Source: an uncultured bacterium
Lineage (GTDB): Bacteria > Ratteibacteria > UBA8468 > B48-G9 > JAFGKM01
Length of the DNA stretch: 30,394 nt
NCBI GenBank assembly: GCA_964650875.1
Contig: CAZYYF010000001.1
Span: forward strand, 2,037 to 32,430
Direction: 5' to 3'
Shown here: piece after piece, positions 12,418 to 22,906 of the stretch
How the letters are laid out: every line of letters starts with the position of its first letter
Numbering within the stretch: position 1 is the stretch's first letter
The notes under the pieces: generated by a model
The model's database searches: none
Told to the model about the DNA's origin: nothing
The model's input: only the letters and a program-made list of their open reading frames with translations
Program-made: the position numbers and the translations under genes

Positions 12418-12511
12418 AAAGTATATGAATTTGACTTTGTATGTAGAGTTACTTAAGGAATAAGAAATACAGGGTTTGAAAACATTGTTTAATCTGGTTA
12501 AAGAGGTGGTT

Positions 12512-13741
12512 ATGTATATAGCAGATTTCCATATACATTCAAAATACAGCAGGGCTACGAGCAAAAATATGCAGCTTGATGAACTTGCCCGGTGGGCGGG
12601 TTATAAGGGAATAAATCTTCTTGGTTCTTCAGATTTCACTCATTTTCTGTGGTACCATGAATTGAAAGAAAAACTCAAAGAGACAGATAGAGAAGGCATA
12701 TATCATTACGGAGGCATAGCTTTTATTCTCACAACAGAAGTTTCTCATATCTACGAAAAGTATGGAAAGACAAAAAAGGTACACAACATTATTTTTATTT
12801 CTTCAATAGAACATGCTGGAAAATTAAACAGGGTTCTTGAAAGATATGCAGATTTAAACAGTGATGGGAGACCTATACTTCCTTTTGAGGCAAAAGAGAT
12901 TGTAAATATCGTTTCTGATGTGGATGAAAAAGGTTTTGTTGTCCCTGCCCATATATGGACCCCTCATTTTTCTCTTTTTGGTTCCAATTCAGGATTCGAT
13001 ACTATTGAAGAATGTTTTGAAGAAACAGTAAAAGAAATATTTGCTCTTGAAACAGGTTTAAGTAGCGATCCCGCGATGAACTGGATGGTTTCTGCTCTTG
13101 ATAAGTTTTCGCTTATATCTAACTCTGATGCCCATTCTCCATGGAAAATCGGCAGAGAAGCCAATGTTTTTGACTCTGCTTTTAGTTTTTCTGAATTAAA
13201 AAATATATTGAAATCTAAAGACCGCAAGAGGTTTCTTTTTACCGTTGAGTATTTTCCTGAAGAAGGGAAATACCATTTTGATGGACATAGAAATTGTAAT
13301 GTGTGTCTCTCTCCTGAAGAATCATTAGAAAAAAATAATTTATGTCCCGTATGCGGCAGGAAAATTACAATAGGTGTTTTGCATCGTGTACGGGATCTTG
13401 CTGACAGGGATTACGGGACAAAACACAAAGATAGCATACCTTTCAAAAAACTTATCCCTCTCTCTCAGATAATAGGTTTTGCTTTAAATAAACCTGCTGA
13501 TTCTATATCAGTAAGAAATAAACTGATTGAAGCTGTAAAAAGCATAGGAAGTGAATTTTCAATTCTTTTTGAAATCCCTCTTAATGAATTAAAAGGGAAA
13601 ATAGATGGAAATATTGTGGACCTGCTTTACAAGATGAGAGAAGGTGAGATACAAATAAAACCAGGTTATGATGGCGAATTTGGAACAATCAAAATTTCAG
13701 GTGAATCTAATCAAGATGCGGATATACAATCCCTTTTTTGA
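12512..13741 (+). CDS. PHP-domain endonuclease Q-like protein (TIGR00375-type) with Zn-finger
   Basis: ADFHIHSKYSRATS, PAHIWTPHFS, ETGLSSDP, SNSDAHSP, GKYHFDGH, CPVCG and PGYDGEFG. The start was moved to the ATG at 12512 (after GAGGTGG). Confidence 0.82.
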   Translation: MYIADFHIHSKYSRATSKNMQLDELARWAGYKGINLLGSSDFTHFLWYHELKEKLKETDREGIYHYGGIAFILTTEVSHIYEKYGKTKKVHNIIFISSIEHAGKLNRVLERYADLNSDGRPILPFEAKEIVNIVSDVDEKGFVVPAHIWTPHFSLFGSNSGFDTIEECFEETVKEIFALETGLSSDPAMNWMVSALDKFSLISNSDAHSPWKIGREANVFDSAFSFSELKNILKSKDRKRFLFTVEYFPEEGKYHFDGHRNCNVCLSPEESLEKNNLCPVCGRKITIGVLHRVRDLADRDYGTKHKDSIPFKKLIPLSQIIGFALNKPADSISVRNKLIEAVKSIGSEFSILFEIPLNELKGKIDGNIVDLLYKMREGEIQIKPGYDGEFGTIKISGESNQDADIQSLF

Positions 13742-14847: not shown

Positions 14848-15783
14848 ATGGGATTTGGACCTGCCAAATTTATAAGGGAAAAAATAAAAGAGCTGGATAA
14901 AAAGACTGAAGGGCAAAAAGTAATTGTCGCGACATCAGGTGGAGTTGACAGTATGACCTGTGCTATGCTTACATTCAAAGCCATAGGCAACAGACTCATA
15001 GTGCTATATCTGGATAATGGATTGATGAGACAGGGAGAAACCGAAGAAGTAAACAATTTTTTTGCTAAAATGGGTATAGAATTGCAGATATGGGATGTTA
15101 AAGAGAAATTTTTTGATGCCCTTAAAGGTAAGAAAGACCCTGAAGAAAAAAGAATAGCGTTCAGGGATATTTTTTATAAAACCCTCAGACAGGCAATAAA
15201 AAGTTATTCTGCTGAATTTCTTGTGCAGGGAACAATCGCAGCAGATATAGTAGAGACACAAAAGGGCATTAAAACCCAGCATAATGTGCTTTCTCAGATA
15301 GGAATAAATCCTGCCACTTATGGACTGAAAATTATTGAACCTCTGAAGGAACTATATAAACCACAAGTAAGAATGGTGGCAAAACAGCTTGGGTTGCCGA
15401 AAAAAATTTATGAAAGGAAACCTTTTCCTGGTCCAGCGTTAGCTACAAGAATTATCGGAGAAGTTGTCCCTGACAGAGTAGAAAAGGTGAGAATTGCGAC
15501 TATGATTGTAGAAGATTTAATCAAAGAAAGAAATGTGTTTCAGGTTTTGGCTGTCCTTTTGTCTGATAAAGCCACAGGTAACATAGACGGCAAAAGAATT
15601 TATGGGGATATTATTGCAATAAGGGCAGTTGAATCAAAAGATGCTATGACTGCTACACCGTGTAAACTTCCGTGGACAAAGCTTGAAAAAGTTAGAAATA
15701 AAATCCTTGCAGAGGTTCCAGGAGTGGTGAAGGTTGTCTATGATATTACTCCAAAACCACCAAGCACTATTGAATATATCTGA
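14848..15783 (+). CDS. guaA: GMP synthase, ATP-pyrophosphatase subunit only (subunit B type, no glutaminase domain)
   Basis: The PP-loop ATSGGVDS lies about 30 aa from the start. Also LVQGTIAAD, KTQHNV, EPLKELYK, PFPGPALA and YDITPKPPSTIEY. Length 311 aa, versus about 510-525 for fused GuaA. Confidence 0.93.
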   Translation: MGFGPAKFIREKIKELDKKTEGQKVIVATSGGVDSMTCAMLTFKAIGNRLIVLYLDNGLMRQGETEEVNNFFAKMGIELQIWDVKEKFFDALKGKKDPEEKRIAFRDIFYKTLRQAIKSYSAEFLVQGTIAADIVETQKGIKTQHNVLSQIGINPATYGLKIIEPLKELYKPQVRMVAKQLGLPKKIYERKPFPGPALATRIIGEVVPDRVEKVRIATMIVEDLIKERNVFQVLAVLLSDKATGNIDGKRIYGDIIAIRAVESKDAMTATPCKLPWTKLEKVRNKILAEVPGVVKVVYDITPKPPSTIEYI

Positions 15784-15829
15784 TAAAACATTAAAAATAC
15801 CTATATTATTTTTCAAAGGAGCAGGTTCA

Positions 15830-17170
15830 TTGGAAAATCCGCGAATATTGAATGAAAACTGTGGGATATTTGGTTTATATGCCGTAGATACATCAAGCAC
15901 AGTGGCAAAAAACATATATTACGGTATTTTTAAACTTCAGCATCGAGGACAAAAATACTGTGGCATAGCTTCTTATGGTAATGATATAAATCTAATAACC
16001 CATAAGGGTTTTGTAAGGCATACATTTTCTTCAGATGACCTTGATTCCATGGACGGTAATTTTGGTATAGGACATACAAGTTTGAAAGAAAGGCAGCCAA
16101 TAATCCTTATATCAAAAATAGGGAAGTTTGCAATAGCTTTTAGTGGCAATATCATTAATGGAATGCAACTACGTAAAGAATTAGAGCAAAAAGGACATTC
16201 TTTCAGTACGGAATCTGATATTGAGCTTTTAGGTAAACTTATTGCCTGCTATGATAATTTCGGTGAAGGTATATTCCAGTTGAGCAATAAGATAAAGGGT
16301 TCATACAGTCTGGTAATACTTTCAAAAGATGGTATATATGCTGCAAGAGACAAGAACGGTTTTAAACCGCTTATCCTCGGTATGAATAAAAACCATTTTG
16401 CTGTTTCTTCCGAATCAAGGTCATTTGACTTGCTGAAGATTGATATCTTAAGAGATGTTAAACCTGGAGAAATAGTCTTTATAGATAAAAAAGGTATCCA
16501 GACAATAGCAAATGTTGAGTGTCATAAACCGGCTTTTTGTGCTTTTGAATGGGCATATATCGCATCAATAGATTCAGTGATAGAAGGCATACCTGTAATA
16601 GAAGCGCGAGAAAATTTCGGAAGTAAACTTGCTTCTTATGATAAAAACATTGAAGCAGACATTGTTGCCCCAGTGCCTTTTTCTGGAATAGGATGCGCTC
16701 TTGGATATCACAAAACATCAGGTATCCGATATGAAGAGGTTTTTCTTATAGACAGGTTTGCCAGCAGGAGCTACACCCCTTTGACACAAGAAAGTAGAGA
16801 CGAAGAAGCTAAAATTAAACTTTCTGTAATAAAATATAACGTCAAGGGGAAAAAAATCATTTTGTGTGACGATTCTATTGTAAGAGGAACACAAATAAGG
16901 TTTAAGGTTAAAGAATTGAAAGAAGCAGGTGCAAAAGAGGTTCATGTAAGGATTGCCTGTCCTCCACTTATAGCACCATGTTTTTACGGTATTTCAACCC
17001 GTTCGTATAATGAACTTGCCGCCAGGAAATTTTCTGTAGAAGAGATAAGAAAAAAAATTGGGGCGGATACCTTGAAGTATAATTCCCTTGAAGATTTTAT
17101 TTCATCTATAGGATTACCTGCAGATAAACTCTGTTTATCCTGCTTTACAGGACAAATGGTAGAGGAATGA
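15830..17170 (+). CDS. purF: Amidophosphoribosyltransferase (Fe-S type with propeptide); divergent glutaminase domain
   Basis: TTG start after AAGGAG gives MENPRILNEN-CGIFG. Also LQHRGQ, ARDKNGFKPL, DDSIVRGT, and Fe-S cysteines (CAFE, PCFYG, CLSC). Confidence 0.9.
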   Translation: MENPRILNENCGIFGLYAVDTSSTVAKNIYYGIFKLQHRGQKYCGIASYGNDINLITHKGFVRHTFSSDDLDSMDGNFGIGHTSLKERQPIILISKIGKFAIAFSGNIINGMQLRKELEQKGHSFSTESDIELLGKLIACYDNFGEGIFQLSNKIKGSYSLVILSKDGIYAARDKNGFKPLILGMNKNHFAVSSESRSFDLLKIDILRDVKPGEIVFIDKKGIQTIANVECHKPAFCAFEWAYIASIDSVIEGIPVIEARENFGSKLASYDKNIEADIVAPVPFSGIGCALGYHKTSGIRYEEVFLIDRFASRSYTPLTQESRDEEAKIKLSVIKYNVKGKKIILCDDSIVRGTQIRFKVKELKEAGAKEVHVRIACPPLIAPCFYGISTRSYNELAARKFSVEEIRKKIGADTLKYNSLEDFISSIGLPADKLCLSCFTGQMVEE

Positions 17171-18216
17171 GAAAAAGTAAAATAGTTTTTGAAACTGGAG
17201 AGTGTGTAGAAGGATATCAGATTCTTAATCCTCTTAAAGAAAAGATAGAAAGGGTTATTTTTGATACAAGAATAGTAGGATATGAGAAGACATTGAGCTG
17301 TCCAGAATATAAAGATAAAATTGTCTGTTTATCATATCCCCTAATTGGCAACTATGGTATTAGTTATCAGGATATTGAAACAAAGGATGTTTTCCCATCA
17401 GTACTCATCATATCAGAGTTAAGTAGTATTGCAAGTAATTATAGGAGTAATATTCCATTTGCAGATTTTATCTTAAAAACAAAAATCTCGGTTATTTCCA
17501 AAATAGATACTCAATATATTACTAAAATAGTTAGAGACAATTGTAACCTGTGGGCATCTATTGTGTCTTTTGACGCAGATGTGAAAAAAGTCCTTTGTGA
17601 AATTAAAGAAAAAAAACAATCTTTCTCAGAGGAAAAGGTTCCCTTTTATGTACCAGAAAAAAGAGCCTCTGTTATGGGTTTAAGGAAACATAATATAGCC
17701 GTTTTGAACCTCGGTTTGAAAAATACCGAGATGTTTCATCTTGCATCTTCAGGTTACGGGATAAAAATAATAAATCCAGCAGACGGGGATGCAAAACAAC
17801 AGATTCTTTCTTCAAATGCCCTCTATATCACATCAGGACCATCTCATAAGATTCTTATCTCTCAGATGGCGGCTTTTCTAACAAACATCCTTGGAAAACT
17901 GCCTGTTTTCGGTGTGGGTATAGGCCATTTAATTCTCGGAAAAGCACTTGGAGGAAAAATTGCCAACAGTACTGTGAATCATTATGGTGTGAACCATCCT
18001 GTTGTGAATCTCAAGAAAAAGAATTGTATTATTACCGAACAGATGCACAGCCTGATATTACAGAGAGAAGACCTGCCTGAAGATATAATAGAAACCATCC
18101 ACATGCATGATGGAACAGTTGAGGGGTTATTCCACGAAGAGATGAAAGCTTTTTCTGTCAGTTTCATCCCACAGGAAGAACATTTCCAGAGGTTTTTTTC
18201 ACTGATAGAGGAATAA
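17167..18216 (+). CDS. carA: Carbamoyl-phosphate synthase small subunit homolog lacking the catalytic Cys/His/Glu
   Basis: N-domain [11 protein letters not shown]...YPLIGNYG, plus NHPV and DGTVEGL. Coupled to purF (ATGA) and directly upstream of carB. Active-site motifs read GVGIGHL and SVSFIPQ. Confidence 0.88.
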
Positions 18217-18217
18217 A

Positions 18218-21200
18218 ATGCCAGGAACAAAAGATATTCACAAAATAATGATAATAGGTTCAGGCCCAATAATTATAGGACAGGCTTGCGAGTTTGACTA
18301 TTCAGGTTCGCAGGCATGCAAGGCTTTGGAAGAAGAAGGATATCAGGTGGTACTTGTCAATAGTAATCCTGCGACTATTATGACAGACCCTGATATGGCT
18401 GAACGTACATACCTTGAACCTCTTACTGTAGATATGCTTAAAAAGATAATAGAAAAAGAAAAACCTGATGCCATACTTCCTACTCTCGGAGGACAAACAG
18501 GATTGAATCTGGCAACATTTCTTTATAGAGACGGAATTCTTGAAAAGTACAATCTAAAGGTTATAGGAGCTGACATTAAGAGTATTGCTATTGCCGAGGA
18601 CCGTGAGATTTTCAAAAATACTATGTTAGAGATTGGTATAAAGGTTCCAGAAAGTGTACTTGCTTATGATTTGCAAGAAGGAATAAATGCAGCGAAGAAG
18701 ATTGGTTTTCCCTTGATCTTGAGACCTGCCTACACACTTGGAGGTACAGGAGGTTCTGTTGCTTATAATCTGGAAGAACTTGAAAAAAAACTTGAGTATG
18801 GCCTGGAAACAAGCCCTATCCATGAGGTCCTTGTAGAACAGTCTGTTTTAGGATGGAAGGAGATAGAATTTGAAGTTATGAGAGATTGCCGTGATAACGT
18901 CATCATAATAACATCTATGGAAAACGTTGACCCAATGGGTGTTCATACCGGAGATAGTATAGTTGTTGCCCCTGCACAAACACTTAGCAGAAAAGAATAC
19001 GAAAAACTAGTTGATTATTCCAAAAAAATTATAAGAACAATAGGGGTAGTTGGAGGTTCTAACATACAGTATGCTGTAAATCCTGAAAATGGTGAAGTTG
19101 TTATCATAGAAGTCAACCCGAGAGTCTCAAGAAGTTCGGCTCTTGCTTCGAAAGCTACAGGGTTCCCTATAGCCCGTATTGCTTCCAAACTTGCAGTTGG
19201 ATTCACCCTTGATGAGGTTACGAATCATCTGGTGGGAAATACAACCTGTTTTTATGAACCTACTGTTGATTACTGTGTTTTTAAAATACCAAGGTTTACT
19301 TTTGAAAAATTTCCGACGGCAGAAAAAACTATAGGCACTTCAATGAAAGCCGTAGGAGAATCTATGGCCATTGGTAGAAATTTCCGCGAAGCCTTGCAGA
19401 AAGGAATAAGGTCACTTGAAATAGGCAGGTATGGTCTTGGCTGTGATGGAAAAGATAGATGGAATACATCACACAAGTTTACTGAAGATGAAAAAGAACT
19501 GATAAAAAAGAGGATATCCATTCCAGATGATGAAAGACTTTTTTATGTCAGATACGGCCTTCTTGCTAATCTACCGATTGAAGAAATTCATAGTCTTTCG
19601 AACATAGATATGTGGTTTCTGCATAATATAAAGAAAATTGTAGATATGGAACAAAAACTTTATAAATATGGAGATATCAATAAATTGCCTGATACATTGC
19701 TCTATGAGGCAAAAAAAACAGGTTTTTCAGACCATCAGCTGGCGATACTTTTCAAAACAACAGAGAAAGCAGTTAGAGAAAAAAGAAAAGAAAAGAATAT
19801 TTTAAACGTTTTCAAGCTTGTAGATAGCACAGCAGGTGAATACAAAGCTGAAAAGCCATACTATTACTCTACATATGAAAAGTATGATGAAGGTAGATAT
19901 TCCCAAAAGAAGAAGGTTATCATATTAGGAGGAGGACCTAACAGGATAGGCCAGGGTATTGAGTTTGACTATTGTTGTGTCCATGCTTCTTTTGCTCTAC
20001 GTGAAGAAGGATATGAAAGCATTATGGTTAACTGTAATCCTGAAACTGTCAGTACCGATTATGACACCTCTGACAGATTGTATTTCGAACCTGTAACCGT
20101 TGAAGACGTGATGAATATCATAGACAAAGAAAAACCTGAAGGGGTAATACTACAGTTTGGAGGCCAGACACCTCTAAATCTTGCCATTTCCTTACAGAAC
20201 GAAGGTGTCAATATTCTTGGAACTAGCCCTCAAGCCATTGACATTGCAGAAGACAGAGAAAAATTCAGACAACTTCTTGAGAATCTCTCTATCAAACAGA
20301 CACAAAATGCGACAGCCATTTCGTTCAAACAGGCAGAGGCTATCGCTGCCCGTATAGGTTATCCAGTTCTTGTAAGACCTTCATACGTTCTTGGAGGCAG
20401 GGCAATGGAGATTGTCTATGACAGTAATTCTCTTAAATCTTTTATGCAGAAAGCAGTAGATATTTCTCCCGAACATCCTGTGCTGATAGATAAATTTCTT
20501 ACGGATGCAATAGAAGTGGATGTTGATGCTATCTGTGATGGAAAGATATGTGTTATAGGCGGAATTATGGAACATATAGAAGAAGCAGGGGTTCATTCCG
20601 GAGATAGCGCAATGGTACTGCCCCCTTATAGCCTGAGCAAAAGTGTTATATCCGAAATCGAAGAATCAACTAAAAAGATTGCCCTTGAACTCAACATAAG
20701 AGGGCTTCTGAATATACAGTACGCTGTAAAAAACAGTGATGTTTATATACTGGAAGTCAATCCCCGCGCCTCAAGAACAGTACCTTTTGTAAGCAAGGTT
20801 ATAAACGTTCCCCTCGCCAAACTTGCAACAAAGATAATGACCGGTAAGACACTTATACAGATCGGATTTACGCAAACAGTTAGTCCCAACTTCTTTGCAG
20901 TTAAAGAATCTGTTTTCCCCTTTACAAGATTTCAAGGCATAGATGCTACTTTGGGTCCTGAAATGAGATCTACAGGAGAAGTTATAGGTATTGACCGAAA
21001 TTTTGAGATGGCCTATGCGAAAAGTCAGATTGCAGCAGGGCAGAAACTGCCTATTGCAGGAACTGTTTTTATCAGCGTAAAAGATAAAGATAAGCCTGCT
21101 GTTGTTCCTATTGCAAAAGGCTTTCGTGAAATAGGATTTGAGATTTTTGCCAGTTCAGGCACAGGAAAATTTTTGTTTGAAAAGGGATTAGATGTCAAAA

Positions 21201-21530: not shown

Positions 21531-22160
21531 GTGAAATTGACAGGAATCGTTAATTATGGAGTAGGCAATATATACAGTGTGGTTTCCGCAGTGAAAAAAT
21601 GCGGAGAAGAATCTTTTATCATTGAAAAACCATCTGATTTTTTAAAAGCGGATAAGATTATACTGCCAGGAGTTGGAGCCTTCGGTAAAGGTATACAACA
21701 CCTACAAGAATCTGGTATTAAGACCGCGCTTTTTGATATAATAAAAACAGGAAAGCCTTTCCTTGGAATATGTCTTGGGATGCAGATTCTGTTTTCTTAT
21801 AGTGAAGAAGGAGACTGCGAAGGATTAAATCTTATCAAAGGAAATGTTAGAAAGTTTGTTTTTCAACCGTTTCATAAGATGAAAGTCCCTCATATGGGTT
21901 GGAGTATTGTAAAAATAATAGAGCCAGGTAAAAAACTTTTTAATAATATACCAGATAATATGTGGTTCTACTTCGCCCATTCCTATTATGTGATACCTGA
22001 AGAATCAACAGTAATTGCCGCTACAACTAACTATGGTTATAGATTTGTTTCCGCAGTCAAGATGAACAATATAGTGGGGGTGCAGTTTCACCCTGAAAAA
22101 AGCGGGGATTGTGGATTAATATTTCTGAAGAACTTTCTGGAGGGAAGATGGCTACTGTAA
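21531..22160 (+). CDS. hisH: Imidazole glycerol phosphate synthase glutaminase subunit
   Basis: GTG start. [19 protein letters not shown] (Cys intact), VPHMGW, YFAHSY and QFHPEKS (His/Glu intact). Confidence 0.95.
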
Positions 22161-22906
22161 GGATTATACCATGTCTTGATGTAAAAGAAGGTAGTGTAGT
22201 AAAGGGTATCCATTTTGAAAATCTCATACAGGCAGGAGACCCTGTCGAACAGGCGGCATTTTACAGTAAAGAAAAAGCGGATGAGATTGTCTTTCTTGAT
22301 ATAAGTGCAACCATAGAAGGCAGAAAAACAATGGTGGATGTTGTGAAAAAAGTTGCAAGCGCAGTTTTTATACCTCTTACTGTTGGTGGAGGTATTAACA
22401 GCATAGGTGATATAGAAGATCTTTTAAAAGCAGGTGCAGACAAAATTTCGATAAATACCGCCGCGGTCAAAAATCCTTCATTGATAAAAGAAAGTACAGA
22501 TAAATTTGGGAGCCAGTGTATTGTTATAGCAATAGATGGCAAAAAAGTCGGCCCCGAAAAATGGGAAGTGTATATTGAAAGTGGGAAGACTCCGACGGGA
22601 AAAGATGTTGTTGAATGGGCAAAAAAGGTTGAAAAACTTGGAGCAGGAGAAATTTTACTTACCAGTATAGATATGGATGGTACCCAGAAAGGATACGACA
22701 TTGAAATGACCAGATCTGTTTCTAAAAACATCAGCATACCTGTAATTGCTTCGGGAGGAGCAGGTACTCTTGACCATCTTTATAAAGTCATAAAAGAAGG
22801 TGGAGCTGACGCTATTCTTCTTGCTTCTCTTTTACATTTCAGGAAGTATACCATATCAGAAATAAAACAGTATTTGAAAGACAAAGGACTGGATGTCCGC
22901 CTATAA
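22148..22906 (+). CDS. hisF: Imidazole glycerol phosphate synthase cyclase subunit
   Basis: [38 protein letters not shown] and PVIASGGAG. Likely start is the ATG at 22148. Confidence 0.96.

Follow-up and report, generated by a model that had tools for sequence, protein, structure and literature searches.

Can a bacterial carbamoyl-phosphate synthetase (CPS) keep its small subunit after that subunit has lost the means to hydrolyse glutamine? This question is raised by a 30,394-nucleotide (nt) stretch of contig CAZYYF010000001.1, from an uncultured Ratteibacteria bacterium. This whole stretch, referred to below as the window, encodes a full-length homologue of the small subunit CarA, here termed CarA*, next to the large subunit CarB. 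The first-pass annotation, made from the letters alone, had taken the gene for a pseudo-glutaminase retained as a structural or regulatory partner of an ammonia-dependent CPS. The analysis reported here favours the structural version of this view, with a probability of about 0.7: CarA* is probably a pseudo-glutaminase, retained as structural partner to a CarB that uses ammonia.

Loss of the glutaminase site in CarA*

The translated open reading frame (ORF) of carA* starts with ATG, has zero internal stops, and specifies 349 residues. These display the two-domain architecture of CarA, with matches to CPSase_sm_chain (PF00988, E=1e-25) and to the glutamine amidotransferase (GATase) domain (PF00117, E=1e-16). 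In an HMMER alignment to E. coli CarA (PDB 1c30_B/1m6v_B), the catalytic residues C269, H353, and E355 (E. coli numbering) face G251, I334, and Q336 of CarA*, and the earlier claim that a full-length CarA has had its whole triad replaced therefore holds. The G-x-G-x-G-H motif of the nucleophile elbow is retained, with Gly in the place of Cys, and the combination of Cys with His/Glu that defines a class-I triad GATase is absent.

The substrate site is affected as well. Residues S47, Q273, N311, and G243, which are 100% conserved in 91 triad-intact relatives, are replaced in CarA* by E47, L255, M293, and S226, respectively, and are lost or variable in the clade to which it belongs (see below). 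The position of Gln273, named earlier as binding substrate, is taken by L255, and the motif positions given by the first-pass annotation (GVGIGHL, SVSFIPQ, SGPSHK, EQMHS, and YPLIGNYG) are all exact. With nucleophile, general base, and partner acid all missing, along with most residues that bind glutamine, CarA* should be unable to hydrolyse it. It also scores below both NCBIfam CarA equivalog cut-offs (200.6 versus 307.35 bits for TIGR01368, and 200.5 versus 221 for NF009475). CarA* descends from CarA, yet by cut-off, triad, and glutamine site alike it falls outside the functional definition of that protein.

Contigs from four independent studies (wastewater, anaerobic digester, landfill, and activated sludge) carry the gene in identical or almost identical form and without indels, which rules out an assembly artefact. 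The variants found within the elbow motif among these independent contigs are synonymous only.

A deep clade sharing the loss

CarA* is not an isolated case. A search of 5.8 billion proteins returns a sharply separated group of 16 protein clusters (P0001-P0016), with scores from 773 to 208 bits and identities from 99 to 36%, ordinary CarA coming next at 181 bits or less. The same gap appears in a profile search of 1.84 billion representatives, in which three sequences at 500 bits or more are followed by one at 317. The 16 clusters form a monophyletic clade and are 34-58% identical among themselves. In a scan of GTDB genomes with the clade alignment, dominated by the generic YPLIGNYG pattern, the at least 600 matches listed included canonical-type relatives only, at 33% identity or less, and no clade member.

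All 16 clade members lack the Cys, which is a Gly in 15 of them, and all lack the His-x-Glu motif. Beyond the triad, they have also lost S47, D45, Q51, R116, G243, P245, Q273, N311, and Q351, each 100% conserved in canonical CarA (n=91). An 8-residue deletion directly behind the former His-x-Glu motif is common to 16/16 members and is also found in a Clostridia lineage (P0032/P0078). Where the His and the Glu used to be, the clade is hypervariable, with nine and ten different residues, so that no substitute has been selected at either position.

The clade is also defined by what it conserves. It has motifs of its own, GxGH(L/I), NHYG(V/I)N(H/Q)PV, and ITEQxHS, and 15 clade-fixed residues: D33, R35, V36, E40, K51, S86, F101, Q116, E188, Y220, S223, G251, N271, Y273, and E291. 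Among these, D33, R35, and V36 of the N-terminal domain stand for canonical N33, S35, and M36, and the invariant S223 stands for an Asn (E. coli N240). In addition, H272, H290, N294, Q310, and H312 (E. coli numbering) are retained.

Such residues could mark a new ligand site. The remodelled pocket, with its lining of clade-fixed polar residues, may then hydrolyse glutamine or another amide donor in a non-canonical way, or bind a metabolite that regulates CarB. The position of R35, S223, N271, Y273, and E291 at or near the old site and tunnel fits this idea, as does the retention of the five residues just named. Against it, S47, Q273, and N311, which contact glutamine, have been lost, the position of the general base is hypervariable, and the domain has no conserved Cys. 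An alternative nucleophile, which the first-pass annotation had named as a finding that would speak against its own proposal, is not visible as a conserved residue in the 16 clade members, the sole invariant Ser, Cys, or Thr of their GATase domain being S223. New chemistry or a new ligand is thus improbable, and a pseudo-glutaminase remains the better description of CarA*.

Selection on carA*

Is the gene simply decaying? Neither mark of a pseudogene, a disrupted ORF or a ratio of non-synonymous to synonymous substitution rates (dN/dS) near 1, is found, as the ORF is intact in all 16 clusters and the least diverged informative pair yields a dN/dS of 0.115 or less for carA*, versus 0.038 for carB. 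Synonymous sites are saturated between clade members (proportion of synonymous differences 0.72-0.82; four-fold-site identity ~0.3), and the clade's dN/dS values are consequently upper bounds only. Together with 44 invariant columns across sequences only 34-58% identical, the low dN/dS indicates purifying selection rather than decay, and the value near 1 that had been proposed earlier as the sign of simple decay is not observed.

This selection is relaxed, however, relative to that on canonical CarA. At CarB identities of 78-80%, CarA* pairs share 39-47% identity, versus a mean of 67% (minimum 59%) for canonical CarA; at 80-90%, the values are 47-58% versus a mean of 80% (minimum 75%). For the same CarB divergence, the evolutionary rate of CarA* is thus roughly double that of canonical CarA. 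The relaxation is stronger in its GATase domain than in its N-terminal domain; canonical pairs show no such difference.

Between the window and a 99.9% identical relative (L081, 18.5 kb), 5 of the 17 differences cluster in 110 bp of carA* (17820-17929). Two are non-synonymous (A235S and L242I), and run X6 contains both alleles. A small patch of recombination or locally relaxed constraint may be the cause. At this strain level, the five codon differences of carA* from its 99% relatives (three synonymous, two not) are too few for a dN/dS. Horizontal transfer of carA* was also considered and dropped, its guanine-cytosine content being like that of its neighbours and the synteny being conserved.

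The accelerated amino-acid evolution and the share of strain-level differences that fall in carA* are what a decaying pseudogene or a sequencing or assembly artefact could point to. This explanation has a negligible probability and is refuted by an ORF that stays intact across the 16 clusters, even at 34% identity, a dN/dS of 0.12 or less, a confident fold, and the indel-free copies of the four studies.

Fold and ammonia tunnel

The AlphaFold2 model of CarA*, built on a 78-sequence alignment, has a predicted local distance difference test score (pLDDT) of 95.4 and a predicted template modelling score (pTM) of 0.93. Its best PDB matches by Foldseek are E. coli CarA, with template modelling (TM) scores of 0.85-0.88, and the N-terminal moiety of human CPS1 (TM 0.81-0.84). 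According to this model, the CarA fold is fully retained. The confident model, its match to E. coli CarA, and the carA*-carB adjacency in relatives agree with the earlier proposal that the protein is retained as a partner of the CPS.

The path that ammonia would follow through the small subunit has been altered at every position: S35 is changed to R, M36 to V or I, G293 to V, and A309 to E; N311 is variable, and P358-G359 are deleted. Residues S35, M36, A309, and G359 of E. coli CarA are reportedly tunnel residues (work of Raushel and Holden). The 8-residue loop deletion may also open a port in CarA*, given that G359 of this loop is the residue changed in the known "leaky tunnel" mutant, G359F (1m6v). 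G293 and the CarB gate C232/A251/A314 are E. coli tunnel or gate positions, and human CPS1 has at the position of G293 a Gln that closes off the ancestral tunnel, an alternative ammonia entry having been proposed (PMC4655335). By analogy, the set V275/E291/R35 of CarA* may play the same blocking role as the CPS1 Gln.

The CarB side of the tunnel is unchanged. Residues I18, I20, A23, E25, E217, T232, A251, and Y261 are those of related canonical CarBs. An altered tunnel or gate in the CarB of the clade is ruled out, T232 being typical of the phylum.

Gene neighbourhood and CarB

The features of the locus are collected in Table 1. The stop of purF and the start of carA* overlap as ATGA (17167-17170), and the carA* stop (18214-18216) is separated by 1 nt from the carB ATG at 18218. 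The ORF is thus intact and coupled to purF and carB, as had been stated. Adjacency and translational coupling to carB are seen, and the formation of a CarA*-CarB complex is predicted.

Table 1. Position of carA*, its altered motifs, and neighbouring genes in the window
Feature	Position	Strand	Evidence
carA*, full-length CarA homologue with a dead glutaminase site	17167..18216	+	ORF, Pfam, NCBIfam, AlphaFold2, Foldseek
N-terminal CPSase small-chain domain (residues 7-131; YPLIGNYG at 57-64)	17185..17559	+	Pfam PF00988
Class-I GATase-like domain, catalytically degenerate (residues 193-333)	17743..18165	+	Pfam PF00117
SGPSHK (residues 223-228) for NGPGDP; E. coli G243 and P245 lost	17833..17850	+	Alignment
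Former nucleophile elbow GVGIGHL (residues 249-255); G251 (17917-17919) for C269, L255 for Q273	17911..17931	+	Alignment
NHYGVNHPV for GH(R/H)GGNHPV; N271 and Y273 clade-specific; V275 = E. coli G293, tunnel residue	17977..18003	+	Alignment
EQMHS (residues 291-295) for SQNHG; clade-conserved E291 at E. coli A309; N311 lost/variable; Q310 and H312 kept	18037..18051	+	
SVSFIPQ (residues 330-336) for SVQ(Y/F)HPE; I334 for H353, Q336 for E355	18154..18174	+	Alignment
8-residue deletion between E338 and H339; loop with E. coli P358-G359-P360-H361 removed	18180..18181	+	Alignments
guaA, ATP-pyrophosphatase part only, 311 residues, no GATase domain	14848..15783	+	Pfam, NCBIfam
purF, amidophosphoribosyltransferase, N-terminal Cys kept (NCGIFG)	15734..17170	+	NCBIfam
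Shine-Dalgarno-like AGAGGAA for carB, inside the carA* 3' end, 4-6 nt upstream of the start	18207..18213	+	
carB, canonical full-length large subunit, 1086 residues	18218..21478	+	NCBIfam PRK05294, 1620 bits (cut-off 599)
hisH (intact Cys-His-Glu: GICLGMQ ... FHPE) and hisF, same cluster	21531..22906	+	

The gene order cca-HIT-MJ0043_C-lpxK-guaA (C-terminal part)-purF-carA*-carB-hisH-hisF-Elm1-GT9 recurs in relatives with a CarA* of only 39-58% identity. The purF-carA* order is kept in all relatives, and carA* and carB are adjacent in the five other window-type clade loci that extend beyond carA* (5/5). The most distant clade member (L088 1-9606, GCA_030607955.1, JAUWIZ010000004.1; also L089) has the order gdhA-glnA-purF-carA*-hisF-guaA (C-terminal part)-carB, with no hisH. 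Its glutamate dehydrogenase and glutamine synthetase genes thus stand in one string with three synthase partners of class-I glutaminases. The sole class-I GATase-like gene of this nitrogen-assimilation and amidotransfer cluster is the dead carA*, which overlaps hisF by 8 nt.

These arrangements bear on whether CarA* is a specialised paralogue, that is, an alternative or regulatory small subunit, used for instance at high ammonia, a canonical carA being present at another site of the genome. Two CPS sets occur in many bacteria, and faster evolution of CarA* would fit a redundant copy. CarA* occupies, however, the place that carA held ancestrally, and it is coupled in translation to the one carB that is seen. 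Relatives whose CarB has diverged to 73-78% identity still show this arrangement. In all seven clade loci (7/7), the 10 kb on either side are free of a second carA or carB, and purifying selection on carA* has been sustained. The paralogue is therefore unlikely, although the most serious competitor to a structural partner of an ammonia-using CarB.

The cluster also invites the idea that ammonia is supplied in trans by its HisH, or by a stand-alone GATase, CarA* serving as an adaptor on CarB. The genes guaA (synthetase part only), purF, carA*, carB, hisH, and hisF are clustered, and HisH is the only live class-I glutaminase among their products. Two relatives have a 4-nt overlap of carB and hisH (L085, 14278-14281; L090, 12718-12721), compared with a 52-nt gap in the window, and carA*-carB-hisH-hisF may be translated there as one coupled unit. 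Common nitrogen regulation can nevertheless account for the clustering, hisH is missing from the cluster of the most distant member, and we know of no precedent for a HisH serving CarB. Supply in trans is very improbable, and direct use of free ammonia by the CarA*-CarB pair is still to be preferred.

PurF has kept its Cys and HisH its Cys-His-Glu triad; glutamine chemistry as a whole has therefore not been given up in this organism. The GuaA of the window scores just below the cut-off of TIGR00884 (321.7 versus 338.75 bits), and the same lack of a glutaminase part is observed in L084, L085, L088, L090, L091, and L092. No glutaminase domain or subunit for GuaA is visible in the cluster, in the window or in the clade relatives. 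Either this subunit is encoded elsewhere, as in an archaeal-type two-subunit enzyme, or the GMP synthetase step also runs on free ammonia. The window's purF is likewise just under its NCBIfam cut-off (345.3 versus 350), and its phosphoribosyltransferase domain is weakly matched by Pfam (E=0.007). The TTG start listed for purF overlaps guaA, and the catalytic Cys lies ~42 residues in (...NENCGIFG), so that the true start may lie elsewhere or a propeptide may be present.

CarB has a dN/dS of about 0.03-0.04 and a bacterial-type allosteric domain (MGS-like, PF02142). Just 14 fixed differences set the CarB of the clade apart, and the known tunnel positions are not among them. Four of these differences are located in the C-terminal allosteric domain, at residues 968 (K to G), 969 (L to F), 983 (A to G), and 1032 (E to I), with G983 adjoining the nucleotide-site region of E. 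coli T977; they may reflect altered allosteric control. The suggestion that K968G hits E. coli K954, which binds uridine or inosine monophosphate (UMP/IMP), was rejected: the residue corresponds to E. coli K963, and K954 itself is conserved.

Two further observations concern the rest of the window. Enzyme I of a phosphotransferase system (PTS; 572 residues) and a PtsN-like EIIA-2 are encoded at 71-2276 on the minus strand, with no sugar permease in the window, and this pair could be a nitrogen-type regulatory PTS. At 12476-13741 (+) lies the gene for a conserved protein of 409-421 residues with a weak MJ0043_C match; every clade relative has it between lpxK and the gene of the HIT protein.

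A probable role in ammonia-dependent carbamoyl phosphate synthesis

The closest named CarB relatives are from metagenome-assembled genomes (MAGs) of Candidatus Omnitrophica/Omnitrophota and Ratteibacteria. The window harbors genes for lipopolysaccharide synthesis (lpxK, kdsA/C/D, lptA, and GT9) and hence derives from a diderm. The sequencing runs that hold the locus are metagenomes of wastewater, anaerobic digesters, landfill, activated sludge, and biogas, all of them ammonium-rich habitats.

CarA* would be translated together with the canonical CarB and kept as its structural partner, bound as in E. coli. As CarA* has lost its glutaminase site and CarB is canonical, the pair would make carbamoyl phosphate from the free ammonia of the medium. 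Ammonia-rich digesters, wastewater, and landfill would suit an anaerobe living in this way, and by using no glutamine it would save the ATP spent by glutamine synthetase. The path within the small subunit appears rebuilt, by an Arg at S35, a Val at G293, a Glu at A309, and the absence of the P358-G359 loop. A remodelled or alternative opening would therefore be needed for ammonia to enter, after which it would follow the unchanged CarB part of the tunnel.

Several points weigh against this scheme. E. coli CPS has a poor Km (Michaelis constant) for ammonia, a dedicated ammonia enzyme would need adaptations, and none is identifiable among the 14 clade-specific differences of CarB. The 15 invariant residues peculiar to the clade and the five it retains around the old site are more than a pure scaffold seems to need. 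A 30-kb view of the genome cannot show that carA* is its sole carA, which leaves room for the paralogue considered above. Finally, no RNA run holding carA* was found.

Other triad-defective CarAs

Defects of the triad extend beyond the clade. Among the 147 next-best representatives of the profile search (P0259-P0405), 77 are without one or more of the triad residues and 72 without the Cys, which has mostly become Gly; several keep His-Pro-Glu. A rough neighbour-joining tree implies at least 18 state changes, with 26 separate all-defective groups; as the tree is crude and the sample query-enriched, these counts give orders of magnitude only. The losses nonetheless look recurrent. Triad-defective CarAs are encoded directly upstream of carB in Clostridioides difficile, in a Rikenellaceae MAG (L038), in another Omnitrophota MAG (L059), and in rumen/gut Clostridia MAGs (L093), which on the rough tree would represent independent lineages. 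In the last of these (L093 9042-15061, scaffold ERZ28654157), the protein belongs to the P0032 cluster of 45 members, with Cys changed to Gly, His to Glu, and the same 8-residue deletion. Its gene stands in the string OTCase/ATCase (ornithine/aspartate carbamoyltransferase)-family gene-carA*-carB, and the CarB is unusually long (1344 versus about 1070-1090 residues).

The CarA of C. difficile has Gly at the Cys and Ile at the His position (TGIGLGHQ and SVQYIPE) in the 15 listed members of a 231-sequence cluster (P0406-P0420) that includes strain 630 (UniProt Q181J3); one fragmentary listed member lacks the His region. The locus is pyrF-carA-carB (L025 9998-11041, CD160, AVHW01000111.1). At 424 bits, the protein exceeds the NCBIfam cut-off and is annotated as "glutamine-hydrolyzing". 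A systematic annotation error is thereby exposed, since a CarA devoid of its nucleophile passes a model that asserts glutamine hydrolysis.

Full-text literature searches found no description of a bacterial triad-less CarA or of an ammonia-only bacterial CarAB, and the phenomenon is apparently both recurrent and undescribed. The clade and the dozens of other triad-defective CarA lineages suggest a repeated bacterial switch to free ammonia. If this is true, models of metabolism that trace nitrogen through digesters, rumen, and gut would have to be revised. A bolder generalisation, tentative and rather unlikely, is that bacterial CarABs with a dead small subunit form a large unrecognised ammonia-dependent class, arisen many times in anaerobes of ammonia-rich habitats such as digesters, rumen, and gut (C. 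difficile among them). In the old lineage of CarA*, the dead domain, with its 15 new invariant residues and its deleted tunnel loop, would then have been rebuilt as an ammonia entry port or a nitrogen-status sensor for CarB, and would be more than a scaffold. These proteins are in any case natural experiments on the roles of the small subunit besides making ammonia and on the entry to the ammonia tunnel, and C. difficile provides a cultivable test system for a dead-glutaminase CarA.

Comparison with known systems

E. coli CarA (PDB 1jdb, 1c30, and 1a9x) shares with CarA* the two-domain fold, the YPLIGNYG region, residues H272, H290, N294, P296, Q310, and H312, and a gene immediately upstream of carB. 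In contrast, C269, H353, E355, S47, Q273, N311, G243, and Q351 are all replaced in CarA*, the P358-G359 stretch (8 residues) is absent, and the two proteins are only ~24% identical. C. difficile CarA, also encoded directly upstream of carB, resembles CarA* in its natural changes of Cys to Gly and His to Ile. It is otherwise canonical, keeping NGPGNP, GHQ, and SQNHG without a loop deletion, and its loss looks much younger or milder than that of the clade.

Engineered mutants of E. coli CarA come close to single features of CarA*. C269G is its exact substitution, and the "leaky tunnel" mutant G359F (PDB 1m6v) affects a residue of the loop deleted from CarA*. The C269G/C269S and H353N mutants reportedly lose glutamine-dependent activity and, like the isolated large subunit, keep NH3-dependent synthesis. 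These are laboratory point changes, whereas the state of CarA* is natural, multi-site, and selected across a deep clade.

Vertebrate CPS1 (PDB 5dou/5dot), with its N-terminal glutaminase-like domain S2, offers a functional parallel. In the textbook view, as given in the CPS1 structure paper (PMC4655335), glutamine serves all CPS types other than animal CPS1; human CPS1, with Ser for Cys, takes external ammonia. Both systems set an inactive glutaminase-like module, its catalytic Cys replaced, beside an active synthetase, and both have a bulkier residue at E. coli G293 (Gln318 in CPS1 and V275 in CarA*). External ammonia is the substrate of CPS1 and probably also that of CarA*-CarB. CPS1 is, however, a fused polypeptide (~1500 residues) that keeps the His and the Glu and needs N-acetylglutamate, whereas carA* (349 residues) and carB (1086 residues) are separate, with the whole triad gone, the loop deleted, and an independent bacterial origin. 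The two subunits, the loss of the whole triad, and this separate origin exclude CarA*-CarB from the CPS1 family; by analogy, it may instead be regarded as a functional two-subunit bacterial counterpart of vertebrate CPS1.

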